NCBI GenBank assembly: GCA_000004985.1
Contig: GG738901.1
DNA: 64,000 bases
Strand: one strand, 5' to 3'
DNA from: Naegleria gruberi
Taxonomy: Eukaryota
Position numbers and translations under genes: made by a program
Part shown: one piece after another, positions 23,155 to 63,422 of the stretch
Layout: each line of letters begins with the position of its first letter
Numbering within the stretch: the stretch's first letter is position 1
The notes under the pieces: generated by a model
Told to the model about the DNA's origin: nothing
The model's input: the letters and a program-made list of their open reading frames with translations, nothing else
The model's database searches: none

Positions 23155-23439
23155 TTTTGCCTTAATTCTAACACATTTGCTTTGGATAGATAAGCACAAT
23201 TTTGCAAATACAACAGTGCCTGGTAGAACCAATTTGAGTGGATGTAATTAGCAGGAAGATAGGTAAAATCAAAAAAGTAATGCTTTCCTCAGTAATTTCA
23301 TTTTTTTGCCAAATCTGATTTGGCGAATTGAAATGGACTAAAATCTTGTTGTAACAGTAAACCATGTAGGAAAGCATTGCTTTATTAGATTTTATTTATC
23401 TTTTTAGAAAATTAAGTGACACTCCAACCAAACAAAAAA

Positions 23440-26400: not shown

Positions 26401-26580
26401 ATAAGTACTGTCAACTCTGTCAGATTTAAGAATGGGAATGGAAAGTTTATAATTGCTAGCTCTCTTTTAAAATCACCAAGGACCACCAAAGAAGATGGTA
26501 TTCCAGATAGAGTTGTTGTAAAAGAAGATGGTCGGTTGTTGTTTGTTATGGACCTTAACTACCAAAAAGAAAAAAAATAA
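23440..26580 (+). CDS. Hypothetical protein, about 1046 aa
   Basis: Long uninterrupted ORF. ATG 23440 sits in aaaaaaATGagt context. It has an internal S/T/P/K-rich linker; the rest is globular. No recognised domain. Confidence 0.5.
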   Translation: MSANNTSYQDFNNYIKRSFDEQGNLTISNKTGESKFNKWRLETKHMSVETPGFHFSDILWMAFKPRTKDNCPVEHSLDVLHVKQEGSLLMVSYFSEAKPLAAAILTSTSFESYSDRHEFKFKAEDCCNDQIGGMSNLLVQFCKEYLRSSYQTNLTFQELCRKYVHKRDAFGFSLLHHFIFNGFTAEIIYLESIMGSSIFPMFLEIEQKKLVNSSKEVLYSTSKNYFLKEKCREMLTEYCQVLKGKAGFEDFVALELERLSEIRLLGVATGNTEFKTRLLYLYNFLTISGKLISTKNPTLGLASNQKIRERIFNVDQNKYIGTKNVEEITRFEIIIGCFLLFNYGHLGDERVVERNILYNLWRSCIELDAKRTPREEIKTSKDATCNPTEEPRTSKHSKQPSDQMEFSHSKPLVETPKKKQKKTSESPNTTPKLTPPPLLISTPNISSVSTNILEPTTPTLKDYIHLKQQMNLSDKCITFLKHFPEKCRERAEDYIRSSDWNHFHRALAIWRLVNKMTGALKFEFDFKTIEGTLLFIGEYFFECLSKSTNSLLKSFFIVRQLAYLLSDNPENSLFILNAEKLSDIFKDENIISKLYTRSDLRGRTLQFENEYYLNTSLMNEKYASKMLFHLKSNKKVCELSEELFNKKTSETHETKEKYFATVVYPVINGGDFALYRQLNYQFREEYEFLVQKWVGGQYPDFSLVFFFLKKSFSLQHLFKILGNSCAMWKNNHSSCFSKILELSRSYNIITNNLKNIGNLILKEFFGGSYVFEIDCSNNLEIMWTLAYGNAESVENLTQYSQLFGQKDEIFESLSLCQSYFYDVVSTGYSPENDESVFMFLWGNLLVKQKKSHEVQQFDVCWVKMDKLKVSLYLGEAKNNTSENAQNVFDGKVDELRLPCPRYQMQEKNLTVGVWEKSYRDLKIYKITNFTVEKETGESVNTLSVFFVSDSKKDTLDFVTNTFKLTLEEKELDVDSPILEKKDLSLCDISTVNSVRFKNGNGKFIIASSLLKSPRTTKEDGIPDRVVVKEDGRLLFVMDLNYQKEKK

Positions 26581-27671: not shown

Positions 27672-28676
27672 ATGTGCCAAGAGATCTTGGCATTTGTTGA
27701 TGATTGGAAATTTATACTGACAAGTTGTTGTCTAGTTTCTAAACAATGGCTCGAAATTGTAAAAAAATATTCTAATCTACGGATTAGTATTAGAAAATTG
27801 GATGATGAAAGAATTCACACAATGACCAAAAGCTCTTTCATCAAATTATTTCGGGAATTGGAGTTATTTGAAGGAATTGATAATGAAATATCAAGTGATT
27901 TTTTAAAAGAATTCAAGTATTTGCGTGAGCTCACAATTATTCGAAACATGGCAAAGCATGAATCTATTCTTGATGGTGTGGGAAGAGCTAAATCAATCAG
28001 TGACTTAAAAAACCTGACTACTCTTGATATTGGATATAGTAGAATTGGTAATGAAGGTTTAGAGTCAATTGGTCAACTGGAAAATTTAACACGTCTTAAC
28101 ATTCGCTCTAATAATATAGGATTAGTCGAGCCAATAATTAATTTGAAAACATTAACAGCCCTCGATATTGGTGAAAATAGTATTGGAAACGAGGGAGTCA
28201 AATCAATAAGCAAATTGACTGAATTGACCAGTCTTTTTATTGATTACGATGATATAAATGAAGAGGGAGCGAAATATCTTTGTGAATTACCAAATTTAAC
28301 TATTTTAGATTTGACAGGAAGTAATATTGGCGATGAAGGTGCCAAGTTTATTGGTCAATCTACAAAATTGAAACATCTCTTCCTATCATTAGCAGATATT
28401 TCTAATGTAGGAGTAAATTATTTGAGTTCCTTGAATGAATTGGTTGATCTTATTCTTTCCCTTAATGATATTGGTGATGAGGGATTAAAGCACCTTAGTT
28501 CATTGAAGATGCTTAATTATCTCAATGTTTCAGGAAATCAAATCACTGATGAAGGAGTTGTATTTATAAGAGAGATGGAAAATTTGAAAAGAATTTCAAT
28601 AACGAATAATTTGTTGACAGCTGTAGGAGAAAATTTAATTCAAGAAATGTCAATTACTACTGATTTAGACTTATGA
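27672..28676 (+). CDS. F-box / leucine-rich-repeat protein (RNI-like LRRs)
   Basis: The N-terminal MCQEILAFVDDWKFILTSCCLVSKQWLEIV is an F-box. It is followed by about 10 repeats of the form L..L..L.I..N.IG.EG...I. Confidence 0.7.
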   Translation: MCQEILAFVDDWKFILTSCCLVSKQWLEIVKKYSNLRISIRKLDDERIHTMTKSSFIKLFRELELFEGIDNEISSDFLKEFKYLRELTIIRNMAKHESILDGVGRAKSISDLKNLTTLDIGYSRIGNEGLESIGQLENLTRLNIRSNNIGLVEPIINLKTLTALDIGENSIGNEGVKSISKLTELTSLFIDYDDINEEGAKYLCELPNLTILDLTGSNIGDEGAKFIGQSTKLKHLFLSLADISNVGVNYLSSLNELVDLILSLNDIGDEGLKHLSSLKMLNYLNVSGNQITDEGVVFIREMENLKRISITNNLLTAVGENLIQEMSITTDLDL

Positions 28677-28880: not shown

Positions 28881-29046
28881 TTTTGCCTTAATTTCTTAAC
28901 AATTCCTTAAAAGACATGTAAATGTTGAAGGCTTTTAATGCTCTTTAAAATTGAAAGCCTTGAAGGAAATATTTGAGAGGAACTCCATAAATGGAAGATC
29001 GATTATTTTCGTAATTTTGCAAAAATGGAAATACTTTAAAAATTTA

Positions 29047-30711
29047 ATGTCTAAAAAAATGAAATTATTCAACATCTTTCTAATTATCTGTATCGCCTGC
29101 TATCTGTTCTTACCAGTATTCTGTCTATCCACACAAGTTACTTCCAATGGCGTTACATATTTAGGATTTCAAAATGGAAACGTTTCTTCCTTTATTGGAA
29201 TTCGTTATGGACAAGAAACCTCTGGCAATAATAGATTCAAGATTACTGTACCCTTCCTCTATGATCAATCCTCTGTGGTCAATGCAACTTCATTTGGCCA
29301 CGTTTGTCCACAACCAACCACTGCCACAACTTTACTTTCGGCCATGAGTGAAGATTGTCTTAATCTGAATATTTGGACACCAATGTTGAATGAAAGTGTG
29401 CAAGTTATGGTTTGGATTCATGGTGGTTCATTCACAAGTGGTTCAGGTTCTATCTATGATGGTTCGTATTGGTGTTCGAAAGCAGCCGAAATGGGAATTC
29501 CAGTAGTTCTTGTAACTATTAATTATAGATTGGGATCTTTGGGTTTCTTATCTGATAAGACAAGTGGTGTGAATGGAAACTTTGGTTTATACGATCAATT
29601 AGAAGCTATCAGATGGGTCAAAGTAAATATTCGAAACTTTGGTGGAAACCCTGACAAGATTACCGTAGCAGGAGAATCAGCAGGTGGCATGTCCATAGCA
29701 TGTCTACTCTCCACCTCCATTTTCTCTTCAGAAAACCTCTTCCAACAATCAATCATTCAAAGTGGAATTCTTCCAAGCTCAGTTTTACAAAATACTTTGG
29801 ACGGAGCTCAAGCATTTACAAATATTTTGAAATCAAGAGTTTCCTGTTTCACACTAGCTTGTTTGAGACAATTACCATTTGCAGATTTCATTACAGCTCA
29901 GAGAAATATGACCTTTGTTCCAGTAGTTGATGGTCAACTTTTATCCGAAACTATTTATCAAAATTTAGACAAGGTCAATAATCCAATCTCCAATATTTCC
30001 ATGATGGTTGGAACGACCAGGAATGAAACCACTGCATTCACCTGTGATAGAGGATCTAATCTCAATATCTATCAATTATATGTCCTCTTCAGAACTCTCT
30101 TCAATATGGAACCTCTCTCATCAATTTTCGAGTTGTTGGCACAAGTGTCCATTCTCTATGGTGGACAGGGGACTTATTCGAGTATTTTGCAATTCTTTAA
30201 TGTGTTTATGACGGATGCATTGTTTTATTGTCCAGCTCGATATTATTCATCGGTGGTTTCAGAGATGCAGAAGAATGTTTCGTCTAAAAGTAGAGTGGAA
30301 AGGAATGTTTATCAGTATGTATTTTCGTATGTCCAACCGAAATTGGGTCCTTGTTATGGAGCTCCACATGCTTCTGAATTGCCTTATTTGTTTCCATCAA
30401 TTTTGGACGAAATTAAGAATAATCCAGATTTGAGTGGAATGTTTTCTGATTCTCAAAATTTAGAATTTTCAGATAAGGATCGAAAAATATCTGATTCAAT
30501 GATTTATTATTGGACTAATTTTATCAAATATGGAAAACCAGATGGAGAAAATCCAAAAGAAGAATTCCCAAATTGGATTTCGTTTAATAGATGTGAAGAG
30601 AAGTTATTGTATATTGACATCCCTCTCAAGATGGAACAAGCAATGAAAGAAACAATTTGTAACTTTTGGGACGATCAATTTGGAAGAAAGAAAATTGAGA
30701 AACATTGTTGA
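29047..30711 (+). CDS. Carboxylesterase type B (cholinesterase-like alpha/beta hydrolase), secreted
   Basis: Signal peptide MKLFNIFLIICIACYLFLPVFC. Oxyanion motif VWIHGGSF, nucleophile elbow GESAGG, and the family-conserved Cys pairs are present. The start is ATG 29047 or 29059. Confidence 0.8.
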   Translation: MSKKMKLFNIFLIICIACYLFLPVFCLSTQVTSNGVTYLGFQNGNVSSFIGIRYGQETSGNNRFKITVPFLYDQSSVVNATSFGHVCPQPTTATTLLSAMSEDCLNLNIWTPMLNESVQVMVWIHGGSFTSGSGSIYDGSYWCSKAAEMGIPVVLVTINYRLGSLGFLSDKTSGVNGNFGLYDQLEAIRWVKVNIRNFGGNPDKITVAGESAGGMSIACLLSTSIFSSENLFQQSIIQSGILPSSVLQNTLDGAQAFTNILKSRVSCFTLACLRQLPFADFITAQRNMTFVPVVDGQLLSETIYQNLDKVNNPISNISMMVGTTRNETTAFTCDRGSNLNIYQLYVLFRTLFNMEPLSSIFELLAQVSILYGGQGTYSSILQFFNVFMTDALFYCPARYYSSVVSEMQKNVSSKSRVERNVYQYVFSYVQPKLGPCYGAPHASELPYLFPSILDEIKNNPDLSGMFSDSQNLEFSDKDRKISDSMIYYWTNFIKYGKPDGENPKEEFPNWISFNRCEEKLLYIDIPLKMEQAMKETICNFWDDQFGRKKIEKHC

Positions 30712-30820: not shown

Positions 30821-33800
30821 TTAAGCATCCACAACGGTTGAAACTTGGTTACAAGATTGATCGACAATTTCATTCATGGTTGATGATAAATCAGTCCAGG
30901 AAACTGTCATGGCTCTCGCTGGATCATAATTCATTCCTCTAATTTGTCTAGCACCCCAAGTGTTGGACATGGCAGAACCAACGGCCATAGCCACAATTTT
31001 CTATAAAAGGAAAATTAAAAATTTATCAAAATAGGAAATATTCAAAAATTAATGAAAATAAAAAATAAAAACATACCCATTGGACCTTATTATTTCCATT
31101 GTAAGGATTATCCAAATCATATGGAACAACTCCACTAGCATTACGTTTCCAACTATTAATCTTTTGAGCTGCAGGAAGAGCATCAGCACATGGCAAACAA
31201 TAAGCAGATTTGGAAGTACTACAATAATCACATTGAGTTCCATTGAGAACTGATGTATCATTATACTTGTAGGCACAAATATCATTCAATTGAGTGTTCA
31301 AAGCAGAACCAGTGTACTTGTTCAAGATATTGGTTTGGATAGAGTTGGAGAAGAGACTTGGTCTTGCTTGGTATTCATTTCTACAATCACCACATGAACA
31401 TGGAACGTTGGCAACACCATCAGTCAAAACTATTGTAAAATAAATTGAAAAATTATTTGTAAGAAATTGTAAGGGTGAAAAAAAACTTACTGAAAATAAC
31501 CTTATCAGCATCATCTCTACCTCCATTGGCAGGTCTCAAAGCATCTACAGCAACTCTCAATCCAGGAATAGTTCCAGTTGAAGAGGCTTCATAAGCCATA
31601 TTAGTTAAGGTATTATTAATTGTTGTTCCGTCATTCGAAAGTTTCAAAGCAAGTGTTGCATTCGAGTGGAATCTTACAATGGAAACCAATATGGAATCTG
31701 ATGAGATGGACATTCTTCCTGTAATTTGTTTACACAAAGTTCTCATTGAATTATAATTGGTTGTACCAATTGACCCAGAAGCATCAAGTAAAAAGACAAA
31801 GTCAATCTTGGCAGTGCAGTAACAATTCTTGAATTCAATGTAGACAGTTGCGTTTCTAGAGACGTTGAATGAAGTGATCATTGTGTATTGGAATTTATCT
31901 GCTTGACAGGTTGTGGTGTCAGAATCAACTTCGATAGCAGCAACTCCATTAACTGTCACTAATCTTGGAGTCTTGTGACAGTAATTGGAATTTGGACAAG
32001 AAATTGAGGTTAATTTCAAGGTAGTATTTGAACCAAATTCATCAATATCATTTTGGAGAATTTGCCAGACGTAGATTCTAATAGTTTGTCCTTGATTAAT
32101 TTCAAATCTGTCATCATTGGCAGTTGGTGTTGATGGTGACAAGACAAATGTAATGACAGCAGTATCAACTCCATTAGTTGGTAAATTGTTATCCGAAACC
32201 TTAACATTCATTGTACAAGTTCCAGTAATGACAGTTGGCAATCTTGTAAAAGTGACAACTCCAGAAGTAGAAATAGTCAAACTTGACACAATTGAGCCAC
32301 AACTATGACCAGTTTGACTGAAAGTCAACACATCAGAACCATCAGCATCTGTGGCCGTATAACCAAAAGTATGGACATTGCTCGTAGCAAGTGGAACCAC
32401 CGTAAAAGTCACATCATTTGCAACCGGAATTTGATTATAAATATTAACAGTCACTGAACAGGCACTGCTACTCGTAGCTTGAGAATCGGTGCTAGTGTAA
32501 GTGACTTGGAAAGTTCCACTGTTAGTGGATGAAGCTTTGAAAACAGTTCCTGTCAAGGTGCCAAATGTTGAAGAGATGGAATTGGTAATGGTGTTGGTGA
32601 TTGGATCATTGTTGGAATCGGTGGCGCTGAATAAGGTGGCCAAGTCAATTGAACCTTTCTTTAACAAGTCAATTGAGCTTGAAGAACAGATTGGAGCAGA
32701 ATTGAGGAAAGTGACACTGAATGTGAGATTTGATGTACTGTAATGAAGACCATCGAATAATCTGAATTGAATTGTCTTGAGACCAAGGATGAGTTTGTTA
32801 CTGGTGGTCAATCTGATACCAGTTCCAATATTAGAAACTGTAATACTTGAATCAGAAGAAACGAAATTGGTATAAGAAATGGAATCTCCATCAGCATCTG
32901 AAACTGTGGCAATTTGAGCCCAAGTGAAATCATAAGTAGAGGTTGTGTAATCTCTGTCAATTGATGTGGATTTTCCAGTACCTGTTGGAGCATTGTTAGT
33001 GACAGTTACAGTGACAGTTCCTGGATTATTGGCAGTTAACATACCATCAGTACATTGGAATTTGAAAGAACCTGTAGCAGAGTAAGCACCATTAGAACCA
33101 GTAAAGGTTAAAGAAGTTGCAGAAGGAGTATAACTAACAATCTTATTCGAAACTGAAACACTTCCACCAACAACACTTGAAGTAGCTCCATTGAAGTAGG
33201 CAGTATCCAATGAATCAGAATCAGTACAAGCACCTGATGATAAATCCACAGAAACAGATGATTTCCATTTGGTAGTTGCTGTCTTGTCAACACATTGTGG
33301 AGCATTGTCATAAACATTGACATTTACAACAGTGTTGCTATTTTCAAGGGATTGAGCACCATCTGTGAATTTATAGGTGACAACATCAGTTCCAATGTAG
33401 GTTCCCGGAGCATTGTAAGTAATGGTTGAAGTTCCAACTGAAACTGAACCCTTTTGAGCTGATGCACTAACAAGTGACAAGTTGTCATTATCTGGATCTT
33501 TCAAAGAAGGTGCAAATGTTGCGAATGGACTCAAGGTAACACCAGTTTCCTTCCAGTGAACATTCTTTGAGCTTGCAACTGGAACTGACATGTTATTATA
33601 AACAGTGACATAAACTGTACCTGGAGTTGACACAATTGAATCACTAGCTCCATAAGTGAATGAGAAAGTTCCCAAATAAACAGATGAACCAGCAGTAGCA
33701 ACAGCATTTGGTGAAGTTGGCATAGCAATAGATCCAGCCCCGGATGGAGAAACACTAGATACTTGAACTGAATAAGTTAATGCATTTCCTTCAACATCTG

Positions 33801-36800
33801 TTACTCCAGTACTCATGTCCATTTGATAACCCGTCTTGTGAGTAGCCCAGTGGACATTGAAATATTTGGTGTTGGTTACTGGAGCAGTATTAGTCATGGT
33901 GAATGTGACTGAGAAAGTAACTGTGGCCAAACCATCAGTTGCAGTTACCTTAAAAGAGTCTGGACCGACATATTTGGTAGGAGCAGTGTAAGTGATTGAA
34001 CTGCCAGTTACTGCAGAGACAGACCCCAAAGTTGATGAGCTATCAACGCTCTTGACTGTTCCCTTTGTTTCTCTACCAGCAGAATAATCATCATCAACAT
34101 AATTAGTTAACAAGTCAACTGTCTTTGAGCCTCCCCAATTAATAAATTGAGTAGCAAGACTGGCAGTTGGCACATTATTGTAAGTAGTAATAGTAACAGA
34201 AACAGTACTATCAAGACCAGTATCAGTAACAGTTACAGTGAACGTATCAATGTACAATTTTCTCAAAGGAGTAAAGTAAATCTTTCCACCTGACAAGGTG
34301 ACAGTTGGATTAGAAGTGGAACCAATTGCCTTAATAGTTGAAGTTGGCAAGTTAGTCAAGATTGGAACTTCATAATTGTTGGCATTCCAGTGGACATCAT
34401 AACTTTGATCATAATTTGAAGAGCTCAATGAACTGACAACAATGTTAATGTAACAAATTGATGAAGCTGTCAAACCATCAGTGACTGTGTAAGCATAGGT
34501 ACGAGCACCAATGTTTGCGTTTGGTTTAAAGTTCAAATATGCACCAACTACAGTGAAAGAATCACCAGGATAGGAATTTCCAATAATTTGAGCAGTTCCA
34601 GGAACTAAATATGGAATATCATTGGAATCTGGATCAGTAACTGATGATGAAATTGAATAGTTTTGACCACTTGTAACATAGATTGGTTTGAATGAAACGG
34701 TCATGTTTGAACATGTTGGTGCACTGTTTGTAATGGTCAATTGAGCAGTTTTACTTCCAGATGAAGCCAAACCATCAGAAACTGAGAATGAGCATGAGGC
34801 TGTACCAAGAGTATTAGGTGGAGCTGTAACTCTAACCTTTGGAACAGTGTCACTAGTCTTTGAACAAGAAGCTCCAGATAATCCTGAAGCAGTTGGATTG
34901 ACAGTCAAAGTAAGAGAATCACCATCATTGTCAGTTGTCTTTGCCATGACAGTGAAATCTTGATTAAGAGATTGAGACAACAAAGTTCTCCAATGAACAG
35001 AAGTAGCAACATTTGAAGCACTTGGTACATCATTATTAGTAAAACCAACGTTAACAGTAATTGTATCAGATTGTGAAACAGTGTCAGTAATAACATATTG
35101 GAAAGTATCAGCCAATCCATTCTTCTTGGCAGTATATTTAACAGAAGATCCACTAACAGAAGCAGCAGTACTTCCACTAACAGAGTAGAGTGAGATTGGA
35201 TCTCCATTTGGATCCATGTCATTGTCCAAAACTGAGAACAAGGTTGCAGGAGCAGCCCAATGGAGAGTGTATGATTCACCTGTACCAACTGGTTTAGTAT
35301 TGGTCACTTGAACGTTGACAGTTCCTTGAGTTTTCTTATTGTAATCATAAGCATAGTAAGTGAATGACTTTGAACCAACAGTGGCAGAGACAGTGTTTGG
35401 AATAAATTTGATAGTCTTGGAATCTGACAAGGTGACAGTTCCAACAGAGGAGTCAGCTGTAGTAGATTCTAAGACAAGAGCATCACCATCTGGATCACTA
35501 TCATTGGACAATGGATTAACCAAGACACCACTAGGATTTCTCCAGTGAGTTGTGATGGAATCATCAACAGTGACAGGAGCGTTATTGTTGACAGTAATAG
35601 TGACAGTAGCAGAGTTGGAATCAGCATTAGCAGAACTTCCATCATTTAACTTGTAAGTGAAAGAATCAGTTCCAACAAAACCATCAGTTGGTGTGTATCT
35701 GACAACACTTCCCAATACAACAACAGAACCATGAGTTGGATTTGTGGTAATGTGAACAGTGGATGTGGTCAAATCACCATTCTTATCAGAATCGTTATCC
35801 TTTACAGAGCAATCAACTGATCTATTCCACAATGTGGAGTAGGAATCATCAACAGCAACAGGAGCATCGTTAACAACTTGTAAAGTAACTGTAGCTCTAT
35901 AAGTTGAAGTCAAACCATCTTGATGGGTGACATCATAGGTCAAATAATCAGTATATTCAGCATTAGAAGCAGCATATGACAAAGTATTCTTAGTGCCAGG
36001 TACAATAGTAGCTTGAATATTCTTAATTGTAGAAGCAGAAACAAAGTTTACAATAAATACTGAACCAAGACCATCGTTTGGATCAGAATCATTATCCAAA
36101 ACATTCAAAATGGAAGTAACACCCTTTGAAATCTCGAATGTATCATCGGCAGGAGTTGGTGGATTATTGATAACAGTAACAGTGAGCTTTCCCTTTGAGA
36201 AACTTGTTGGATCAGCATTACCATTAGCATCAAGACTTTGATCAGAAATTACATATTGAGCAACGTCAGTTCCCAAGAAACCATTTGGAGCTGAGTAGAG
36301 AGCATGTGTTTCATTGAAGAGGGTCAAACTTCCTCCATTCAATGTTGTGGAATTCCAACCAACACTTGACAAGACGATCTTTGCAGTGTCACCACTGTTG
36401 ATATCATAATCATTGGCAACGAGATTGACATAAACTTGAAGATTCTTATTACATTCGGCAAGGTCATCAACTGCAACAGGTGGAGTATTGACAACGTTGA
36501 TGGTGATTATACCACTTCCTGTACCTTCACCATCTGACATGACAACAGTGAAAGTTTGAGTGTAAACTTGATTGGAAACTGGTGTGAAAAGGATAGTGTA
36601 ATTGTTTGTTTCAACACTAAGCCAATCACAACAATCAAAGAAAATATTGACATAATTAGTAGTCTTTTGTAAAGAAGAAGAAACAGATGCAAGAGAAGGA
36701 GTGATTGTACTTGGAACGATCAAATCCTTTCCATCTGCATCATAATAATCAATAGTAATTGAATTATTAGTGGATGACTTGGCAACAGTGACAGTTTTAG

Positions 36801-37999
36801 AATAGACAACTGGATTTTGATTGTAAACTGAGATTACAACAATACCAGATGAAGTAGCAACACCATCTGAAATGGTATATTCAAACGAATCAGAATATTT
36901 GGTATTGACACTACCACTTGTAATGTAAGTAATCTTCTTTTCACCAACATTGATAGCACCATAACCAGTACCCAAAGCACTTGTAATATTGAAATCATCA
37001 CCATTGATATCATAGTCATTAGCCAAAACATCCAAAACCAATGAACGGAATTTAGGAATTCTGTAAGTATCATCAACAGCAATTGGAGGATCGTTGGAGA
37101 CAGTGACAGTAATTATAGAGCTCGAAGTGTCATAGCCATCAGAAATGGAATAGGCAAATTGTTCAACACCATTGAAACCATATGCAGGAGTATAATAGAA
37201 ACCATTAGCTGGATCAACAGAAATTGAACCAGTTTCAGCACTATTTCCACTAACAATAGTTTGATTAGTGAAAGAAACTGCTTGAATTAAATCACCATTA
37301 TCTGGATCATTAATCTTCTCATCATTATCACCAACATAATCAAAAATGTTGATTACTGAATTCTTGGCATTCTTACTGACAGTTACACGAATAGGAACGG
37401 CTTCTGGTGGACGATTCAAAACTTGAATAGTAACAGATGCATTTGCTGTCTTGTAACCATTAGTAATTTGATAACTGAAAGTGTCATTTCCAGCAAAAGT
37501 ACCATTTGACTTGTAGAGAACTTGACTATTGGACTGAATTGAGGCTGAACCATGATTTGGATAGACAACAAATTGAACCAATGAAATGTTTGCTCCTTTA
37601 GGATCATAATCATTGGAAAGAACATTGATGGTCAATGGAATATTCTTGTAGGTGGAAGCTAAATCATTGACAGCAACTGGTCTTTGATAGGAAATCAAGG
37701 ACACCATCAAGATGGTGGCTACTGTGGAAGCAATAACCAAACCAGAGATGATAGCACCAATCTATTTGGTTTTTTAGAATATGCGAAAGATTATTCGAAA
37801 CTTACGATTGTTTGACTAATAGTACCTCCTTTCTATTAAATAGGTTAGAGCGCAAGTGGAGTTTGAAATATTTCATTGTTATTTTTCGACATTATTCACA
37901 TATTATCCACATGGATTGTCAACTGACACTTACTAATAACGAAACGTTGAAACCAAGAGATTGCTTGGACGCAGTTGAAGATCCAATAATTTCTGGCAT
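30821..37999 (-). CDS. Giant adhesin-like protein: a signal anchor, about 18 tandem ~100-aa Ig/cadherin-like (VCBS-type) repeats, and a C-terminal vWA domain. Five-exon model on the minus strand: join(37934..37999, 37806..37832, 31491..37761, 31077..31429, 30821..31000)
   Basis: The 6.3-kb ORF holds repeats of the form NxPVAVDDxY...YTP..GFxGxDxFxYxxxDG...A.VT.V. The vWA motifs DFVFLLDASGSIG and ILTDGVANVP are joined across a 61-nt GTAAGT..AG intron (31430-31490). The last exon is joined across a 76-nt GTATGT..ATAG intron (31001-31076). The main ORF opens directly after an acceptor AATAG and lacks an ATG. Two small upstream phase-0 exons are proposed: MPEIIGSSTASKQSLGFNVSLL and KGGTISQTI. Confidence 0.6.
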
Positions 38000-39079: not shown

Positions 39080-42000
39080 ATGTCTCAAGAAAACGATAAT
39101 ATCGAAGTTGGTGACGAAAGCCAACGTCGTCGTAGAACAGCTCGTGGTGGCGCTGGTGCTGGAACCAAATCAGCAGCTTCAGCAACTCTCTTTACAAAAC
39201 TTGTTGATGCTCAATCAGATGAAAGTAACTGGAAAGTTTCAGGTGCCAACTTTATGTGGGTACCATGTAATGGTGAAGCACTTAATGCTTTCGAAGTTGG
39301 TGAAATTAAAGAACGTAAAGGAAAGGAAGTTGTTGTTGAAACAGAATCAGGTGATAAGAAGACACTCCCAATTGAAGAAGTTTTCCCAATGAATCCTCCA
39401 AAATTGACAGGTATTGAAGATATGGCTAGATTATCCCATCTGAATGAACCTTCTGTGCTTTTCAACTTGAAGAAGCGTTATGAAAGTGATAAAATCTACA
39501 CATACTCTGGTCTCTTTTTAGTTGCCGTCAATCCATACAAGAATTTACCAATCTATACTGATGAAATCATCAAGAAGCATAATGGTAAGAGACGTGAAGA
39601 TGCTGAACCACACGTTTTCACAGTTGCAGATGTTGCTTATAGACAAATGTTACAAAATCAATTGAATCAATCCATGTTGGTTACAGGTGAATCAGGTGCT
39701 GGTAAAACTGAAAATACCAAGAAGATTATCCAATATTTGACTGCTACAGCTGGTGCTTCACATGGTGCTGGTAAATTAGAAAACCAATTGTTGCAAACCA
39801 ATCCATTGTTGGAAGCTTTTGGTAACGCAAAGACACTTCGTAATAATAACTCATCTCGTTTTGGTAAATTCATTGAAGTTGACTTCAATGTAAGTGGTTA
39901 TATTGCTGGTTGTAAGATTCAACACTACTTATTAGAAACAACAAGAGTTACTGCTCAAGCTGGTGATGAAAGAAATTTCCACTTCTTCTATCAAATCCTT
40001 TCTGATGCTCAAGCTAGAAACAAGTATCACTTGACTAATGTTAACAGTTATGCCTATGTCTCTCAATCTGGTTGTACTTCTGTTCCAGGTATTAATGATG
40101 CTATGGAATTCCAAGAAACATTGAAGGCCATGCGTATTATTGGTATCAGTGAAGATGAAATTGATGCTACTTGTAGAATTGTTGCTTCAATTCTCCATTT
40201 GGGTAATTGTAAATTTGTAAAGGATGATGAAGATTTATCCATGTTACCAGAACGTTCACCACTCAATACTGCTTCTGAATTATTGTGTGTTGATCCAGAA
40301 GGTTTGGCAAAGGGTTTCATGAAGCCAAACATTATTACTCCAACTGATATCATTGAAACTCACGTCAATGTTGCTCAAGCTGGTTTCAATAGATCTGCTT
40401 TAGTCAAGTCAATGTATAATCGTTTGTTCGACTGGTTAGTTCGTTCCATTAATCAATCTTTGACATCAAAGGAAAAGATTAAGAACTTTATTGGTGTCTT
40501 GGATATTGCTGGTTTCGAAATCTTTGAATTGAACAGTTTTGAACAATTGTGTATCAATTATACTAACGAAAAGTTGCAACAATTCTTCAATCACCATATG
40601 TTCAAGAAGGAACAAGAAGAATACTTGAAGGAAAAGATTGAATGGAAGTTCATTGATTTTGGTTTGGACTTGCAACCAACTATTGACTTGATTGAAAAGC
40701 CATTGGGTATCTTGGCTATTTTGGACCAACAAACTTTCATGGCTCAACAATCTGAAGAAGGTTTGGTTCGTGAAATTAACAAGAATCATGGTACTAAGAA
40801 ACAATTCAAGACTTCTCGTTTCAATGAAAAGGAATTCATCCTTTCTCACTATGCTGGTGATGTTCCATACAATGTTGTTCAATGGTTCACTAAGAACGTT
40901 GATCCACTCAATGAAGATTGTAAATCAACTATGATTGCTTCTGGTAATACTTTGATTAAATCACTCTTTGATGTTCCAGGAGAAAGAACCAAGGCTAATG
41001 AAAAGAGATCTGTTGGTAGTGCTCGTTTCAAGACTGTTGCTACAAACTATAAGAATCAATTGAAGGATCTTATGGGATTGTTAGAATCAACTGAACCTCA
41101 CTTTATCCGTTGTATCAAACCAAACAATTTGCAAAAGCCAGCTATCATTGATGATCGTCTTGTTTTGCATCAATTGAAATGTAACGGTGTCTTGGAAGGT
41201 ATTCGTATTGCTCGTAAGGGTTATCCAGGTCGTATTCCATATGCTGAATTCGTCAAACGTTATGATTTGTTGGTTGAAGATAAACGTTCTTTGGAACAAC
41301 AACCAAATCTCCGTGGTAAGGCTCAAGTCATTCTTGATTCTATCAAGTTTGAAGAAACCACTCAATATAAATTGGGTGCCACAAAGGTCTTCTTGAAGGC
41401 CTCACAAGAAGCTCTCATTGAAGAATATCGTGAAGCTCAAATTTCAAAGATTATTGGTGTTGCTCAAGCTGCTGCTTTAGCCGCTTATGAAAGAGTTGCT
41501 TATAAGAAGTTGCAAGGACGTTTGGTTTCTATCAAGTTGATCCAAAGAAACTTCCGTGCCTACTTGAAGCTCAAGAATTGGGGTTGGTGGCAATTAATTA
41601 ACTTGACTCGTCCATATCTTAAGGAATTCTCAAGTGAACAAGTCACTAAGAAGTTGAAGGAAGATTTCGAACAACTCAAGAAGGATCTCGAAGGTGAAAA
41701 GGATTCTAAGAAGAAGCTTGAAACTGAAAAGAATGCTCTCGAACAATCTCGTAAGAAGCTCATTGATGACTTGGAAGAACAACGTAATCGTTTGGATACC
41801 ATGAATAATCACATGAACCAACTCGAAAAGGAGTTGAATGATAGAAAGAGAGAATTGGAACGTTCTCAAAAGGATAACGATGACAAGGACTCTGAAATCA
41901 CTCGTAACACTCAAGCTATTGCTGCTCTTAACCAAGCTCAAAAGAAGCTCGAAGAAGCCATTCGTGATATGAAGAATGAAATTGAACAACGTGAAAAGAT

Positions 42001-44920
42001 TATCAAATCTAAGGGTGGTGACTTGCAAAACAAGGATTTAGAAATTGAAACCTTGAACAAGAAGGCCAAGGATTTGGATAAGAGAATTGCTGATTTGGAA
42101 AATAATCTTGCTGATTCTCGTAATGAAATCAATAACAAGTCCAATGAAATTTCTAGACTCCAAATGGAGCTTTCTGACCAAGGTATTCAATTGGAAAATG
42201 AATCCAATAACCGTAAGGCTCGTGAAGAAGATTTGAAGAAGCGTGATAAGGACATCAAGGACTTGAAGAAGGAATTGACCGACTCTCAATTGGCTGGTGA
42301 TCAATTGGATTCTGAATTGAAGAAGACCAAGAAGGAAAAGCAAGGTTTGGAAGAAGATTTGGACAAGCAAAAGAAGTCTGCTGATAACTTGCAAAGAAAG
42401 TTAACTGCTACTGAACAAAGTGCTCAAAACTTGTCCAACCAATTGGATGAAGAAACTCGTAAGAGACAAGGTGCTGAAAATAAGAATCGTTCACTCCAAT
42501 CTGACTTGGATAATGCCAACTCCAAGGTTAATGATTTGGAAAACGCTGTTCATGACAGAGATGATTTGATTGCTCAACTTCAAGCTGAAATCAACAAGCT
42601 CAAGCAAAGAATTGCTGATCTTGAATCTGAAAACCAAAAGCTTTTGGAACGTAACAAGGATCTCGAAAGAGAACTCTCTGATACCAAGTTCAGAATGGAT
42701 GAAGAGTTGAAGAACAAGAATAACGAAATTGATCGTTTGAAGAAGCTCTCTGAATCATCAAAGGATGAATTAACTCTCCAATTGAACAGAACCAATGATG
42801 AAAAGAATGATCTCCTCAACAAGTTGAAGAAGGCTGATAAGGACTTGAAGAACTTGAAGAAGAACAAGGATGATCTTCAACAAGAAAAGGATGATGCTGA
42901 TAACCGTATCAGAAAGCTTGAATCTGACCTCAAGGAAAAGGAACAACAAGCTGATGCTCTTCAAAAGAAGATTGCTGACTTGGAAAATGAAGGTCGTAAT
43001 AAGGATGCCCAAAAGAAGCAAACCGATTTGGAATTGCAAGCTGCCAAGGATGAATTGAACAGAACCAAGCAACGTGCTGATCAATTACAAACTGATTTGG
43101 ATAACCAAAAGGAACGTGCCAACGAATTGGAATCTGCCCTTTCTGACACTGAAGGTGGTAAGAATCAATTGGACAACCAATTCAAACAACTCCAAACTGA
43201 TTTGAATAATGAAAGAAACAATGTCAACAAGTTGAAGACTGAAGCTGAAAAGCTCCAACGTCAATTGGATGAAGCTACTCGTGCTCTCTCTGATAAGTCA
43301 TCTGAATCCTCTAATTTGGATGCTAAGGTTAGAGCTTTGGAAGAAAAGATCCGTGAATTGACTGCTCTCTTGGAATCTGAAAGATCATCCAAGTCTGAAT
43401 CTGACAAGAAGAAGAGCAAGTCCGATAAGGAAATTAAGAGATTGGCTGAACAATTGCAAGGTGTTGAATCCCAATTGAAATCTGAAACTCAAAAGAAGAA
43501 TGATGCTGATAACCGTGTTAAACAATTAGAAAATGAATTGAACACTGTTAAGAATGAACGTGACAGATTGAACAAGGATTTGACTAACCAATCTGGTGAT
43601 GTTTCTGGTGCCAAGAGACAACTTGAAGAAGCTAATACTCAAATTGCTAGATTGAAGGCTGATATCTTGAAGCTTACCAAGGACTTGCAAGAACGTGATG
43701 GTGATAAGGATGAAGCTGATGAACAATTGGACGGTTTGAGAAAGCAAATTCAAGATTTGACTTCTCGTCTTGGTGATGCTAATAACAAGCAACAACAAGA
43801 AGCTTCCTCTCGTCAATCTATTGAATCTGAAAACAACAGATTGAAGACTGATATTGCTCGTCTCCGTGATGATCTTGAAAAGGAAAACAAGAGACTCAAG
43901 CAAGAAGTTGAACGTGTTTTGGCTGAATCTGATAATGACAAGAATGACTTGTTGACTCAATTGAAGAAGATTCAAGAACAATACTCTGAACTTAAGGATG
44001 AATTCAAGGATTTGCAAAAGCAACCACGTGGTGGTGTTGCAGGTGGTGTTGACTCTGCTGAAGTTGAAAAGCTCAGACGTGAATACGAAATGCAACTTGC
44101 CCAATTGAAGGCTCGTGTTGAAGAAGTTACTAATCAACGTGTTGAAGTTGAAAACAAGAAGCGTTCTGTTGAAATGGACTTGACTGAATTGAAGACTCGT
44201 CTCCAAACTGAAGAAAGATTGAGAAAGAAGGCTGAACAACAAAAGAAGTCTGCTGAATTGGAATGTGATGAATTGAGAGAATTAGCTGAAGAATCTGAAG
44301 ATTTGAGAGATGAATTGAATCGTAACAAGTTAGAACAACAAGCTTTGATTCAACAATTGAGAACTGACTTGTTGCAAGAACGTAATCAACGTGCTTCTGC
44401 TGATGAAGTTTCTTCTCGTGTTAGACGTGAAAATGAAGAATTGAAGCAAGATTTGGAACAAGAAAGATCCAAGTTGGACGAAGCTGCTCGTAGATTGAAG
44501 CAACAATATGAAAATGAATTGTTGGACTTGAATAACCAAGTTGCCCAAGCCAAGAAGGAAAGAGCTTCTGCTTCTCGTGAACAAAAGAAGGCTGATCGTG
44601 ATCTCCGTGAATTCCAACGTCGTTTGCAAGAAGAATCTCGTTCTAAGCAAGATTTGGAACAAAAGTTGACCAAGACTGAACGTGAAAACAAGTTGTTGCA
44701 ATCTCAATCCCAATCAGATGCCTCCAAGTTGCAAAAGTCTGAACAAGACAAGTCCAAGTTGGAAGCTGAAAATCGTCAACAAAAGGACAAGCTCCTCGAA
44801 TTGCAAGATGATTTGGAAAAGTTGAGACAACAAGTTGATAGTGAAAGAAAGAAGACTCAACGTCTTGCTCGTAAGGCTTCCCCATTCTCTGCTAGTCAAT
44901 TGGTTGATGATCTCCAATAA
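39080..44920 (+). CDS. mhcA: Myosin II heavy chain (conventional non-muscle myosin), 1946 aa, with no introns
   Basis: The motor domain carries the P-loop GESGAGKTENTKK, switch motifs, LDIAGFE, an IQ motif, and then about 1100 aa of heptad coiled-coil. It has high similarity to Dictyostelium myosin II. Confidence 0.95.
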   Translation: MSQENDNIEVGDESQRRRRTARGGAGAGTKSAASATLFTKLVDAQSDESNWKVSGANFMWVPCNGEALNAFEVGEIKERKGKEVVVETESGDKKTLPIEEVFPMNPPKLTGIEDMARLSHLNEPSVLFNLKKRYESDKIYTYSGLFLVAVNPYKNLPIYTDEIIKKHNGKRREDAEPHVFTVADVAYRQMLQNQLNQSMLVTGESGAGKTENTKKIIQYLTATAGASHGAGKLENQLLQTNPLLEAFGNAKTLRNNNSSRFGKFIEVDFNVSGYIAGCKIQHYLLETTRVTAQAGDERNFHFFYQILSDAQARNKYHLTNVNSYAYVSQSGCTSVPGINDAMEFQETLKAMRIIGISEDEIDATCRIVASILHLGNCKFVKDDEDLSMLPERSPLNTASELLCVDPEGLAKGFMKPNIITPTDIIETHVNVAQAGFNRSALVKSMYNRLFDWLVRSINQSLTSKEKIKNFIGVLDIAGFEIFELNSFEQLCINYTNEKLQQFFNHHMFKKEQEEYLKEKIEWKFIDFGLDLQPTIDLIEKPLGILAILDQQTFMAQQSEEGLVREINKNHGTKKQFKTSRFNEKEFILSHYAGDVPYNVVQWFTKNVDPLNEDCKSTMIASGNTLIKSLFDVPGERTKANEKRSVGSARFKTVATNYKNQLKDLMGLLESTEPHFIRCIKPNNLQKPAIIDDRLVLHQLKCNGVLEGIRIARKGYPGRIPYAEFVKRYDLLVEDKRSLEQQPNLRGKAQVILDSIKFEETTQYKLGATKVFLKASQEALIEEYREAQISKIIGVAQAAALAAYERVAYKKLQGRLVSIKLIQRNFRAYLKLKNWGWWQLINLTRPYLKEFSSEQVTKKLKEDFEQLKKDLEGEKDSKKKLETEKNALEQSRKKLIDDLEEQRNRLDTMNNHMNQLEKELNDRKRELERSQKDNDDKDSEITRNTQAIAALNQAQKKLEEAIRDMKNEIEQREKIIKSKGGDLQNKDLEIETLNKKAKDLDKRIADLENNLADSRNEINNKSNEISRLQMELSDQGIQLENESNNRKAREEDLKKRDKDIKDLKKELTDSQLAGDQLDSELKKTKKEKQGLEEDLDKQKKSADNLQRKLTATEQSAQNLSNQLDEETRKRQGAENKNRSLQSDLDNANSKVNDLENAVHDRDDLIAQLQAEINKLKQRIADLESENQKLLERNKDLERELSDTKFRMDEELKNKNNEIDRLKKLSESSKDELTLQLNRTNDEKNDLLNKLKKADKDLKNLKKNKDDLQQEKDDADNRIRKLESDLKEKEQQADALQKKIADLENEGRNKDAQKKQTDLELQAAKDELNRTKQRADQLQTDLDNQKERANELESALSDTEGGKNQLDNQFKQLQTDLNNERNNVNKLKTEAEKLQRQLDEATRALSDKSSESSNLDAKVRALEEKIRELTALLESERSSKSESDKKKSKSDKEIKRLAEQLQGVESQLKSETQKKNDADNRVKQLENELNTVKNERDRLNKDLTNQSGDVSGAKRQLEEANTQIARLKADILKLTKDLQERDGDKDEADEQLDGLRKQIQDLTSRLGDANNKQQQEASSRQSIESENNRLKTDIARLRDDLEKENKRLKQEVERVLAESDNDKNDLLTQLKKIQEQYSELKDEFKDLQKQPRGGVAGGVDSAEVEKLRREYEMQLAQLKARVEEVTNQRVEVENKKRSVEMDLTELKTRLQTEERLRKKAEQQKKSAELECDELRELAEESEDLRDELNRNKLEQQALIQQLRTDLLQERNQRASADEVSSRVRRENEELKQDLEQERSKLDEAARRLKQQYENELLDLNNQVAQAKKERASASREQKKADRDLREFQRRLQEESRSKQDLEQKLTKTERENKLLQSQSQSDASKLQKSEQDKSKLEAENRQQKDKLLELQDDLEKLRQQVDSERKKTQRLARKASPFSASQLVDDLQ

Positions 44921-57985: not shown

Positions 57986-58035
57986 NNNNNNNNNNNNNNN
58001 NNNNNNNNNNNNNNNNNNNNNNNNNNNNNNNNNNN
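57986..58035. other. Assembly gap (50 N)
   Basis: Run of n characters. Confidence 1.
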
Positions 58036-61733: not shown

Positions 61734-62507
61734 AAATCTGTAAATATGAATGTGAAAATAAACTTGATATTCTATCTCTACACACCGAATGGAGCATTTT
61801 CATGTATAATTTGTTGATTGAAGTGATATATTTGATAGACTTGATCTGACTTGTCTTTCCTTTCAGTCAACTTTGTAAAATCAACATTTACATTCCCATG
61901 GTACCATTTCTAATTCTTATGATATGAAATTGAATTCTATATCACTATAGATCATATAAATCATTTTGGTAAAGTTTCAATAGGTGGTCCTTTATCAAGA
62001 TTTCCCACCTTTTCATCATAGTTGACCATGTGTGGTTGAGGGAAGAAATCTTTAAATATGAAAGTTAAAATAAATTTGATATTCGATGTTTACTAATCAA
62101 ATGGAACATTTTCATATTAGGATTCAATATGTTTTGATGAGAAACTCAAAACCTATAGTTGACCTCTTTTACCTCACAACTTCCCTTTTCACTTGATACT
62201 TTATATCTACCGACATGAAGTTTAGAAATTTCATATGAGAGTGATTATGAATGTTGTTAGTGAAGATATATACTATATAATCTCATTAAAGGATTTTGAA
62301 ATTATCATTCTTCCTATGGTTTCATTTTATAATTTTTAATCTGACATTATTTACAAAGTTAATATTTTATAAATTGAAAAACTAAATATAATACATTGTT
62401 CTACTCATCATTTACAATCGAATGATATAATATTCAATAATTTGGGCTAGGGTTTGAACTTTGAAACATTGGGTCTGGTATTTCAATTTTAGGTTCAAAG
62501 GTTTAGA

Positions 62508-62591
62508 TTTTTAGGCTTGGGTTTTTAGGCTTGGGTTTTTAGGCTTGGGTTTTTAGGCTTGGGTTTTTAGGCTTGGGTTTTTAGGCTTGGG
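62508..62591 (+). repeat. Six tandem copies of a 14-bp telomere-associated variant repeat, TTTTTAGGCTTGGG
   Basis: Direct reading shows six exact units. They sit immediately proximal to the canonical TTTGGG array. Confidence 0.9.
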
Positions 62592-62897: not shown

Positions 62898-62947
62898 NNN
62901 NNNNNNNNNNNNNNNNNNNNNNNNNNNNNNNNNNNNNNNNNNNNNNN
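62898..62947. other. Assembly gap (50 N)
   Basis: Run of n characters. Confidence 1.
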
Positions 62948-63420: not shown

Positions 63421-63422
63421 AC

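Follow-up and report, generated by a model that had tools for sequence, protein, structure and literature searches.

Positions 30821-37999 on the minus strand of the window (the whole 64,000-nucleotide stretch of Naegleria gruberi contig GG738901.1 analyzed here) contain an intact five-exon gene. Its joined exons give a coding sequence of 6,897 nt and a protein of 2,298 residues, with zero internal stops. The protein begins with a conserved 31-residue tail, followed by a single transmembrane helix, a tandem array of 20 repeats and, at the C-terminal end, a VWA domain. We lean, by a little, toward interpreting it as a type II single-pass plasma-membrane glycoprotein that functions as a long-reach adhesin or receptor. 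The features of the gene and its product are as follows.

37934-37999, minus strand: exon 1, 66 nt, with the ATG at 37997-37999; its product (MPEIIGSSTASKQSLGFNVSLL) aligns with the N-termini of database proteins P0001-P0004 and P0008
37833-37933, minus strand: intron 1, 101 nt, GTAAGT...TAG, phase 0
37806-37832, minus strand: exon 2, a 27-nt micro-exon with the product KGGTISQTI
37762-37805, minus strand: intron 2, 44 nt, GTAAGT...TAG, phase 0
31491-37761, minus strand: exon 3, 6,271 nt, running from the transmembrane helix through the whole 20-repeat array into the VWA domain, of which it encodes the first half
37693-37761, minus strand: transmembrane helix or signal anchor, residues 32-54, IGAIISGLVIASTVATILMVSLI
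31825-37707, minus strand: 20 contiguous cadherin-like β-sandwich repeats, residues 50-2010, ~100 residues each
30848-31824, minus strand: complete VWA domain, residues 2011-2290, with a Cys-rich insertion; introns 3 and 4 interrupt its coding sequence
31771-31785, minus strand: MIDAS motif D2024-A-S2026-G-S2028, completed by T2093 (31576-31578) and D2125 (31419-31421)
31430-31490, minus strand: intron 3, 61 nt, GTAAGT...TAG, phase 1, within codon I2122 just ahead of LTDG
31077-31429, minus strand: exon 4, 353 nt, encoding ILTDG and the Cys-rich insertion
31080-31415, minus strand: Cys-rich insertion, residues 2127-2238, mostly helical, between β4 and β5, with ~8 conserved Cys
31001-31076, minus strand: intron 4, 76 nt, GTATGT...TAG, phase 0
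30821-31000, minus strand: exon 5, 180 nt, encoding β5-α7 of the VWA domain (KIVAMAVG...EIVDQSCN), with the TAA stop at 30821-30823

A Kyte-Doolittle scan of the whole protein shows residues 32-54 to be its sole hydrophobic peak (19-residue mean of up to 2.35), in keeping with the N-terminal signal anchor proposed in the initial annotation, and finds no hydrophobic C-terminus. The charges flanking the helix are weak, with Lys12 and Lys23 on one side and Arg58 on the other. The preceding tail (MPEIIGSSTASKQSLGFNVSLLKGGTISQTI) contains no NPxY and no recognizable talin/actin-linking or signaling motif. The composition is Ser/Thr/Asn-rich and acidic (T 13.1%, S 13.0%; 188 Asp + Glu versus 118 Lys + Arg), and 12-13 of the 30 cysteines in the protein are invariant residues of the C-terminal module. 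The 27 N-x-S/T sequons after residue 55, which like the cysteines suit an extracellular location, fall below the ~46 expected from composition and thus do not imply heavy glycosylation. The hydrophobic segment could alternatively be a cleaved signal, which would give a secreted protein.

The repeats, initially counted as ~18, form 20 contiguous units (R1-R20) in an HMM built from the array itself, with the consensus vtvtV.N..PvAvdD...w...l.ND.D.dGd...gSvsv...i.Yt....Gtd.FtY..tDG...s..tvtvtv.N. Pfam profile searches assign Big_9 (PF17963; E = 1.6e-120, 394.7 bits against a cutoff of 23.6, 12 stretches), Cadherin_4 (PF17803; E = 1.9e-86, 285 bits against 25.1) and Cadherin_5 (PF17892; E = 1.7e-40, 137 bits against 26.5), and the NCBIfam tandem-95 profile (tand_rpt_95, NF012211) matches nine stretches with 266 bits against a cutoff of 90. 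By the curated cutoffs the array therefore belongs to the tandem-95/Big_9 families; the tandem-95 score and the predicted cadherin-like fold agree with the consensus and the bacterial-type family originally suggested. An AF2 model of R7-R8 consists of two seven-stranded sandwiches (pLDDT 93.5, pTM 0.81), and a Foldseek search with this model retrieves cadherin/protocadherin EC tandems, the SraP adhesin and the MfFcnA4 cadherin-like domains. As modeled, each repeat is an Ig-like/cadherin-like β-sandwich. Identity among the repeats of the protein is only 23%, and the acidic linker motifs fade in R10-R20.

The VWA domain is matched by Pfam PF00092 (E = 1.8e-16, 61.3 bits against a cutoff of 23.8) over profile positions 1-117 of 174, the match stopping there because of the insertion. 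What had been described as a separate Cys-rich C-terminus is, according to the alignment and an AF2 model, a disulfide-rich insertion within the VWA fold, between β4 and β5. The model was built on the VWA segment of N. lovaniensis P0001 (pLDDT 84.9), which is 85% identical to that of N. fowleri P0002, itself 60% identical to the VWA domain in the window, and it places β1-β6 and the flanking helices around the insertion (model residues 224-340). The modeled domain is thus a complete α/β VWA fold from β1 to α7. Across an alignment of 19 family members the MIDAS aspartates, the threonine and the last serine are invariant and the middle serine is at least 90% conserved. The top Foldseek matches of the model are Toxoplasma gondii MIC2 and the Porphyromonas gingivalis Mfa5 tip adhesin; the fold also matches ANTXR2, TRAP, collagen VI, the integrin αX/αM I domains and vWF A3, the last with a TM-score of 0.82 on the target. 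Outside its own family the nearest sequence relatives of the domain are metazoan collagen VI/XII-type A domains, as befits the eukaryotic-type VWA of the initial annotation, and vWF A domains also match. Among MIDAS VWA adhesins (vWF A1/A3, integrin α I, TRAP/MIC2, ANTXR2, Mfa5 and collagen VI), the likeness lies in the Rossmann-like fold and the D-x-S-x-S/T/D MIDAS, which is intact here. Those adhesins lack the ~110-residue helical insertion with conserved Cys, whereas their TSR, integrin β-propeller and collagen helix are absent from the Naegleria protein.

Full-length relatives of ~2,310 residues, with 51% identity over 100% of the length, are present in N. fowleri and N. lovaniensis. All 20 repeats are collinear with those of both proteins, and each matches its positional counterpart (best scores 60-138 bits, second-best 25-56 bits). 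Three heterolobosean genomes besides this one encode full-length collinear relatives, and more distant relatives of the same frame are found in Willaertia and on eukaryotic metagenome contigs. Only eukaryotic relatives share the N-terminal tail and anchor, the repeat order across R1-R8 and R16-R20 and the VWA domain with its Cys-rich insertion. We define here a heterolobosean TM-repeat-VWA family, for which there is no curated definition, by the tail motif, the transmembrane helix, the collinear R1-R8/R16-R20 and an insert-bearing VWA domain ending in ...D-x-x-C-N, all of which the protein displays. The Naegleria and Willaertia relatives share the whole architecture, an MPE...N-x-S-L-L-K-G-G-T-I-x-Q-T-I tail and the intron after ...QTI. 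They include N. fowleri FDP41_006209 and FDP41_010565, N. lovaniensis C9374_008469 and C9374_006824 and W. magna ABK040_005755, which are labeled as 'VWFA domain-containing' or 'tandem-95 repeat' proteins and are uncharacterized; literature searches found no paper on the family. The protein in the window is distinct, being 75% identical to one truncated N. gruberi model, and its own exact sequence is absent from the protein collection searched. The gene is one more member of a family already in public databases without a name. This is a multigene family with stalks of variable length (proteins of ~1,180 to 3,560 residues), and the larger Naegleria and Willaertia paralogues (~3,400-3,560 residues) carry an additional C-type lectin domain (PF00059), which fits a family concerned with ligand recognition. 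A Pfam search did not find this domain in the protein described here.

The architecture fits a role in adhesion, which the protein probably has. The 31-residue cytoplasmic tail and the single transmembrane helix would hold it in the membrane with the N-terminus inside and the C-terminus outside. The 20 cadherin-like domains would form a stalk of ~80-90 nm, assuming ~4-4.5 nm per domain, probably stiffened by Ca2+ at the N..P..DD and ND.D.DGD linkers; owing to the fading of the acidic linkers in R10-R20, such stiffening may apply to the proximal half only. At the far end, the VWA head with its intact MIDAS (D2024-x-S-x-S, T2093 and D2125) and putatively disulfide-braced insertion may use a metal ion to bind a ligand on the substrate, on prey or on other cells, by analogy with integrin I domains, vWF A domains, TRAP/MIC2 and pilus-tip VWA adhesins.

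It is unlikely that the protein is instead a secreted or shed structural component of the glycocalyx, matrix or cyst wall, in which the VWA domain would cross-link matrix in the manner of collagen VI/matrilin A domains, after either cleavage of the N-terminal segment as a signal or release of the ectodomain. The collagen VI/XII-like matrix proteins nearest to the VWA half-domain outside the family, the Ser/Thr/Asn-rich acidic composition and a tail devoid of recognizable cytoskeleton-linking motifs are consistent with such a protein. However, the 31 residues before the helix are conserved, with an N-[LVI]-S-L-x-K...QT-like motif in Naegleria, Willaertia, P0013, P0014, P0017 and P0024, and conservation of the tail across such distant members is hard to explain if it belongs to a discarded signal peptide. 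Moreover, the hydrophobic segment has 23 residues, a length typical of an anchor and not of a signal h-region.

Naegleria is a bacterivore, and in a further reading, which we consider distinctly unlikely, the same geometry would serve a pattern-recognition or phagocytic receptor for bacterial prey, with the VWA domain (and the lectin domain in paralogues) recognizing microbes and triggering uptake. The lectin-bearing paralogues, the multigene family with its variable stalk and the Dictyostelium Sib proteins, which serve both adhesion and phagocytosis (PMC9197732), are compatible with this role. Nevertheless, nothing in the sequence separates prey recognition from substrate adhesion, this gene has no lectin domain and the tail is short and has no signaling motif.

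The adhesin or receptor that we favor resembles several known systems. Dictyostelium SibA-E ('similar to integrin beta') combine a VWA domain, 'bacterial-like repeats' and a transmembrane segment, and SibA acts as an adhesion receptor (PMC2651865, PMC9197732); Sib proteins have been shown to mediate adhesion to substrate and particles (table of PMC2651865; PMC9197732). PMC2651865 terms the repeats 'bacterial-like (RTX family/adhesin-like)'. Sib proteins have been reported from dictyostelids only (bioRxiv 10.1101/2020.04.29.069435). Judged from published descriptions of Sib proteins, the shared plan comprises a membrane-distal VWA domain, bacterial-type repeats and one transmembrane helix, so that the design is not unique among amoebae. 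However, Sib proteins are of type I, with an N-terminal VWA domain and a transmembrane segment near the C-terminus, whereas the Naegleria order (transmembrane helix, repeats, VWA) is reversed (putative type II); they have four repeats rather than 20, and their tail binds talin through two NPxY motifs, which the 31-residue Naegleria tail lacks. By order and tail the protein is therefore not of the Sib type.

RTX adhesins likewise have Ca2+-stiffened β-sandwich extenders (PMC7493085, PMC5550230). The giant members MpIBP, LapA, FrhA and Legionella RtxA show the same succession of an N-terminal anchor, tandem extenders with acidic linkers and distal C-terminal ligand-binding domains (PMC5550230, PMC7493085, PMC12077191), and repeats of these families are also found in bacterial proteins labeled 'retention module-containing' by NCBI (P0384). 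In contrast to these adhesins, the Naegleria gene has a eukaryotic transmembrane anchor, spliceosomal introns and native codon usage. A Pfam search found no RTX nonapeptide (GGxGxD) repeats (PF00353, HemolysinCabind), the protein finishes with the VWA domain rather than with a T1SS secretion signal, and no Pfam or NCBIfam profile matches the N-terminus, where the 31-residue tail and the helix stand in place of a retention module. The protein is analogous to Sib proteins and RTX adhesins and is a member of neither family. With cadherins and protocadherins it shares the predicted tandem β-sandwich fold, and its N-x-x-P-x-A-x-D-D motif recalls the cadherin Ca2+-binding linker, but the metazoan Cadherin family (PF00028) is absent from the Pfam matches, which are to Cadherin_4, Cadherin_5 and Big_9. 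The solved cadherins in the fold search are 12-19% identical to the Naegleria repeats, and classical cadherins differ from the protein, which has a putative type II topology and no catenin-binding tail.

Little is established about the molecules with which Naegleria attaches to surfaces, prey and host matrix, and adhesion is regarded as part of N. fowleri pathogenesis in the introduction of PMC9928731. Speculatively, the family may represent an old, integrin-independent class of adhesion or prey-capture receptors of amoeboid protists, assembled in inverted (type II) order from bacterial-derived cadherin-like extenders and a matrix-type MIDAS VWA domain. It would then be a mirror image of the Sib proteins and a eukaryotic counterpart of the bacterial RTX adhesins, the second, independently arranged amoeba adhesion receptor after Sib to be made of bacterial-type repeats and VWA, and would bear on the origin of cell-adhesion machinery outside animals. 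The family, which includes full-length N. fowleri proteins, is built as one would expect of a primary adhesin, with an anchor, a long stalk and a putative metal-dependent head; were it the main trophozoite surface adhesin, it would be a candidate receptor by which N. fowleri attaches to host matrix. Its range so far includes Naegleria, with the pathogenic N. fowleri, Willaertia and several metagenome eukaryotes.

The five-exon model of the initial annotation is borne out almost to the base by an uninterrupted frame through four GT-AG introns; its 5' micro-exons of 66 and 27 nt are exact and their product aligns with relatives, while the protein is somewhat longer than the ~2,280 residues first given. 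The joined N-terminus (MPE...GFNVSLL / KGGTISQTI / IGAII...) aligns residue for residue with the N. fowleri, N. lovaniensis and Willaertia proteins, the exon 2 product being conserved as KGGTI[ST]QTI in Naegleria and Willaertia. Intron 2, after ...QTI, has a counterpart at the same protein position in the annotated genes of N. fowleri (L005) and N. lovaniensis (L006) and is the only one in a common position; the first intron of those two species lies 11 codons before the intron 1 site. Intron 3 falls between the DxSxS and TDG motifs as had been described, more precisely 97 residues after the former and three before the latter, and if left unspliced it would bring a stop into frame at 31453 and cut the VWA domain ahead of TDG. 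Protein conservation supports the predicted splicing of all four introns. A pseudogene or a gene-model artifact, with a real long ORF and flanking exons not joined as proposed, is very improbable: intron positions do vary across species except for that after ...QTI, and the two closest N. gruberi database models are truncated or internally skipped (P0005, 1,343 residues; P0007, 1,515 residues), which shows automated annotation of the family to be fallible, but 2,298 codons run without a stop in a genome of 34-38% GC, the product of each exon is conserved in relatives (including the nine-residue micro-exon and the β5-α7 exon) and the VWA domain is completed past TDG only when intron 3 is removed.

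The initial annotation had also suggested a domesticated horizontal acquisition. Native codon usage and composition and an architecture confined to eukaryotes leave no place for a recent or whole-gene import; at most, the repeat module could have been acquired long ago. Any such transfer predates the Naegleria/Willaertia split, as indicated by the low inter-repeat identity and the one-to-one orthology with N. fowleri. The gene is no recent bacterial import. The initial annotation had named membership of the repeats in a common eukaryotic family, with no special bacterial affinity, as a finding against its claim. Half of this applies: SibA-E supply a characterized amoebozoan precedent, but the bacterial affinity of the repeats is real. 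Bacteria share the generic repeat type only, and not the tail, anchor, repeat order or VWA head. The proposed comparison with neighboring genes gave no sign of transfer (GC 0.378, GC3 0.26, synonymous-codon profile correlating at 0.94, on par with any native gene). Recent transfer from a bacterium, or bacterial assembly contamination mis-modeled with introns, is scarcely credible and, for practical purposes, refuted by native codons, introns and collinear heterolobosean relatives: Big_9, Cadherin_4 and tandem-95 are overwhelmingly bacterial families, bacterial proteins reach E ~1e-270 and a repeat pair is no less similar to bacterial pairs (33-37%) than to other pairs within the protein (27-34%), yet the bacterial matches are not collinear and leave the N-terminus and VWA head unmatched (<30 bits), the four introns restore conserved protein sequence, and the locus is gap-free, flanked by a carboxylesterase gene on one side and a myosin II gene devoid of introns on the other.

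The giant gene is encoded on the minus strand of the window in five exons, which were obtained by reading and joining the flanks of an open frame of 2,095 codons (31453–37740) located in an ORF scan of the window:

37934–37999, minus strand, exon 1
37806–37832, minus strand, exon 2
31491–37761, minus strand, exon 3
31077–31429, minus strand, exon 4
30821–31000, minus strand, exon 5

Introns 1–4 (101, 44, 61 and 76 nt; phases 0, 0, 1 and 0) start with GTAAGT or GTATGT and end with TAG, and the joined CDS of 6,897 nt (2,298 codons) contains no internal stops. The rebuilt frame agrees exactly with the coordinates of the initial annotation, including its two micro-exons of 66 and 27 nt, and is not attributable to chance because it is so long in DNA of 34–38% GC. 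Support for the model comes from conservation of the encoded protein in relatives. The best protein matches, from N. lovaniensis and N. fowleri (2,309–2,315 aa), cover 100% of the query at 50–51% identity. For the 31 residues encoded by the micro-exons (MPEIIGSSTASKQSLGFNVSLL followed by KGGTISQTI), the alignment with MPETITLGSTTAARQVVGFNLSLLKGGTITQTI of N. fowleri is gapless, as are those with the N. lovaniensis and Willaertia proteins (64–65% identity, 67–75 bits). Mapping of annotated proteins onto their genomic loci places an intron directly after …QTI in the window, N. fowleri and N. lovaniensis genes. The other intron positions differ between the window gene and the loci of N. fowleri (L005, 10001–17369, three annotated introns) and N. 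lovaniensis (L006, 10001–17426, five annotated introns); either introns in this TM-repeat-VWA family change position rapidly or some of the public models lack precision. If intron 3 is left unspliced, a stop at 31453 precedes the conserved LTDG; once it is removed, the protein runs on as KVIF-ILTDGVANVPCSC, matching KVIYILTDGLANEPCSC in relatives. The only in-frame ATG of exon 3 lies inside the hydrophobic helix, and a start there would therefore destroy the anchor. On this comparative sequence evidence, we regard the gene as real and conserved.

The next-best matches are truncated N. gruberi models, one of which is 75% identical over 30% of the query in its best local alignment. The N. gruberi database models of the two closest relatives are clearly defective: P0005 begins within the TM helix, omits ∼950 repeat residues and jumps the LTDG exon, and P0007 lacks internal repeats. 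The five-exon pattern could guide their re-annotation. The annotation of family members in Naegleria and Willaertia goes no further than 'hypothetical', 'VWFA domain-containing' or 'tandem-95 repeat' protein, and literature searches on Naegleria and the relatives' genes found no published work on the family. At least six members are present in N. lovaniensis (∼1,180, 2,315 and 3,430–3,540 aa), and the Willaertia magna match has 3,559 aa. In per-repeat BLAST comparisons, each of the 20 repeats (R1–R20) has a positional partner in N. fowleri; in Willaertia, collinearity extends to R1–R8, R16, R19–R20 and the VWA head, and in the relatives P0014 and P0051 to subsets of these. Two VWA-bearing relatives lie on metagenomic contigs that also carry RGS, Arf, rhomboid and cullin genes and are considered eukaryotic because of these neighbours. 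The family gene is alone on the contig of P0051.

The HMM search proposed in the initial annotation, run on the 2,298-aa protein, matched Big_9 (E 1.6e-120, 12 stretches), Cadherin_4, Cadherin_5 and VWA in Pfam, and the NCBIfam tandem-95 repeat domain scored 266 bits (cutoff 90). Iterative HMM building with the protein's own units delineates 20 contiguous repeats from residue 50 to 2010 with zero spacers and the consensus vtvtV.N..PvAvdD...w...l.ND.D.dGd...gSvsv...i.Yt....Gtd.FtY..tDG...tvtvtv.N, in which the repeat motif of the initial annotation is recovered. The repeats are old, with a mean pairwise identity of 23%. In an AF model of the window's own R7–R8 (pLDDT 93.5) the pair forms two seven-stranded sandwiches in line, with EC tandems of cadherin and protocadherin, the SraP adhesin and MfFcnA4 cadherin-like modules as the nearest solved folds. 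The protein is not a classical cadherin: it has no PF00028 match, and its topology does not fit. A Kyte–Doolittle scan found a single hydrophobic segment (residues 32–54) and none at the C-terminus, and GPI anchoring was therefore rejected.

The C-terminal module was aligned for 19 family members. Asp126 and Ser130 of D-x-S-x-S, Thr195, Asp224 of TDG (numbering of the N. lovaniensis P0001 segment) and 12 cysteines are invariant, and Ser128 is conserved in at least 90% of members. The corresponding MIDAS residues of the window protein are Asp2024, Ser2026, Ser2028, Thr2093 and Asp2125. The P0001 segment was modelled as a stand-in for the window's sequence (VWA identity 85% between P0001 and the N. 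fowleri relative P0002, and 60% between P0002 and the window). The model (pLDDT 84.9, pTM 0.77) displays the last repeat as a β-sandwich, followed by a complete VWA fold with a Cys-rich, mostly helical insert of ∼115 residues between β4 (ILTDG) and β5 (KIVAMAVG). This insert is why the Pfam VWA match ends at profile position 117 of 174. The Cys-rich C-terminus described in the initial annotation is thus not a separate tail, as in the P0001 model the insert lies within the VWA domain, which extends to the end of the protein. The top Foldseek matches of the model in the PDB are adhesin VWA domains (T. gondii MIC2, P. gingivalis Mfa5, ANTXR2, mussel PTMP1, the integrin αX/αM I domains, vWF A3 with a TM-score of 0.82 on the target, TRAP and collagen VI). 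At the sequence level, the PDB matches are collagen VI and vWF only. Among the HMMER matches listed for the module, full-length ones are confined to the family; those beyond it cover half the domain, and the named ones are metazoan collagen VI/XII-like proteins. No bacterial match was found among those checked by name in the 150 listed, ∼2,370 further significant matches lying beyond these.

The order of the parts, together with conserved cysteines and NxS/T sites in the ectodomain, suggests a type II surface protein with a distal binding head. The short conserved tail and single helix would hold the protein in the membrane, and the 20 sandwich domains would keep the metal-dependent head far from it, with a predicted reach of roughly 80–90 nm. 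The linker motifs N..P.A.DD and ND.D.DGD, which are clearest in R1–R9 and weaker in later repeats, are similar to the Ca2+ sites by which cadherins and the extenders of RTX adhesins are made stiff (PMC7493085) and may likewise stiffen the stalk via Ca2+. The head would bind a ligand, giving the protein a probable role in adhesion. That the protein is instead secreted or shed, as part of a matrix or coat, is an unlikely alternative to this membrane-held arrangement, and we consider a prey-recognition receptor slightly less probable still, the latter being favored by the extra C-type lectin domain gained by the larger paralogues.

We recognise in the giant gene a known kind of protein, the long-stalk adhesin that carries a VWA head, arranged in a way unusual for eukaryotes, and it matters mainly as a candidate adhesion receptor of Naegleria. 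The closest characterised eukaryotic system is SibA–E of Dictyostelium, described in PMC2651865 and PMC9197732 as demonstrated adhesion receptors that bind talin and combine a VWA domain, four repeats resembling those of bacteria and a TM helix. The Naegleria protein is not a Sib protein, because its parts are in reversed order, it has five times the repeats and it lacks NPxY. Bacterial RTX adhesins are closest in design, but the Naegleria protein has neither their retention module nor their RTX repeats. The gene would also be a second case in which an amoeba has assembled an adhesion receptor out of repeats of bacterial type.

R1–R20 themselves belong to a mainly bacterial repeat family. Matches at 26–31% identity and with very low E-values include proteins of cyanobacteria, Bipolaricaulota and Mangrovibacter as well as many from metagenomes, and a window repeat pair is as similar to bacterial pairs (33–37%) as to other pairs within its own protein. 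In three bacterial proteins tested by per-repeat BLAST, best and second-best repeat hits are equal and scattered, and neither the N-terminal tail nor the VWA head gave anything above 30 bits. In these comparisons, the likeness to bacteria ends at the generic repeat unit. The composition of the gene (GC 0.378, GC3 0.26), examined for signs of transfer, is native, with a synonymous-codon profile correlated with that of neighbouring genes (r = 0.94). A paper on the Vermamoeba genome reports that the top-expressed 'bacterial-like' gene there is homologous to a tandem-95 protein of bacteria (PMC7125106), which hints that such proteins are also in use in Amoebozoa. We conclude from the sequences that the whole architecture is a eukaryotic invention common to several amoeboid lineages. 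The initial annotation, whose observations stand with small corrections, had suggested that the gene may be an ancient, domesticated horizontal acquisition. This interpretation is supported in part and does not hold for the gene as a whole, given its eukaryotic architecture and native codons; at most, the repeat module came from bacteria, long before the divergence of Naegleria and Willaertia. Native composition, genomic context and collinearity with eukaryotic relatives led us to reject contamination or recent HGT, to which we assign very little weight, as we do to the idea that this uninterrupted, conserved frame is a pseudogene.

The genes flanking the giant gene are as follows:

27672–28676, plus strand, LRR protein
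28951–30711, plus strand, carboxylesterase-family protein, its gene and the giant gene being convergent
39080–44920, plus strand, intronless myosin II heavy chain of 1,946 aa (Myosin_head E 3e-262, long coiled-coil tail)
44959–47187, plus strand, 742-aa ORF consisting largely of DUF4116 repeats (E 1.8e-47)
48139–49131, plus strand, sterol C-methyltransferase-like protein

The LRR, carboxylesterase-family and sterol C-methyltransferase-like genes are ordinary eukaryotic neighbours. ORFs 20378–23032, 23416–26580 and 49833–50969 have no Pfam match. The myosin II gene is divergent from the giant gene across a 1.08 kb spacer, and the DUF4116 ORF starts only 39 bp past its stop. Unlike in the window, no myosin II gene adjoins the relatives at L005 and L006.

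Towards its right end the window contains assembly gaps, and the end itself (62508–63999) is telomere-like:

57986–58035, 59170–61733 and 62898–62947, runs of N
62508–62594, six copies of the 14-nt unit TTTTTAGGCTTGGG, ahead of the 6-nt array
62587–62897, perfect 6-nt array TTGGGT (i.e. TTTGGG), 52 copies
62948–63424, minus strand, 135-aa open frame (…NMDDTDF…) between the two arrays
63423–63999, the same perfect 6-nt array, 97 copies

The apparent low GC (0.04–0.2) at 58–62 kb and the long ORFs 58847–61849 and 59137–61803 are artefacts of the runs of N. Given this telomere-like sequence, the giant gene lies only ∼25 kb from what is probably the end of a chromosome. The 135-aa frame has a weak, sub-threshold match to the reverse transcriptase family RVT_1 (E 0.0013; 18.9 bits, cutoff 29.6) and is possibly a piece of a retroelement associated with telomeres.
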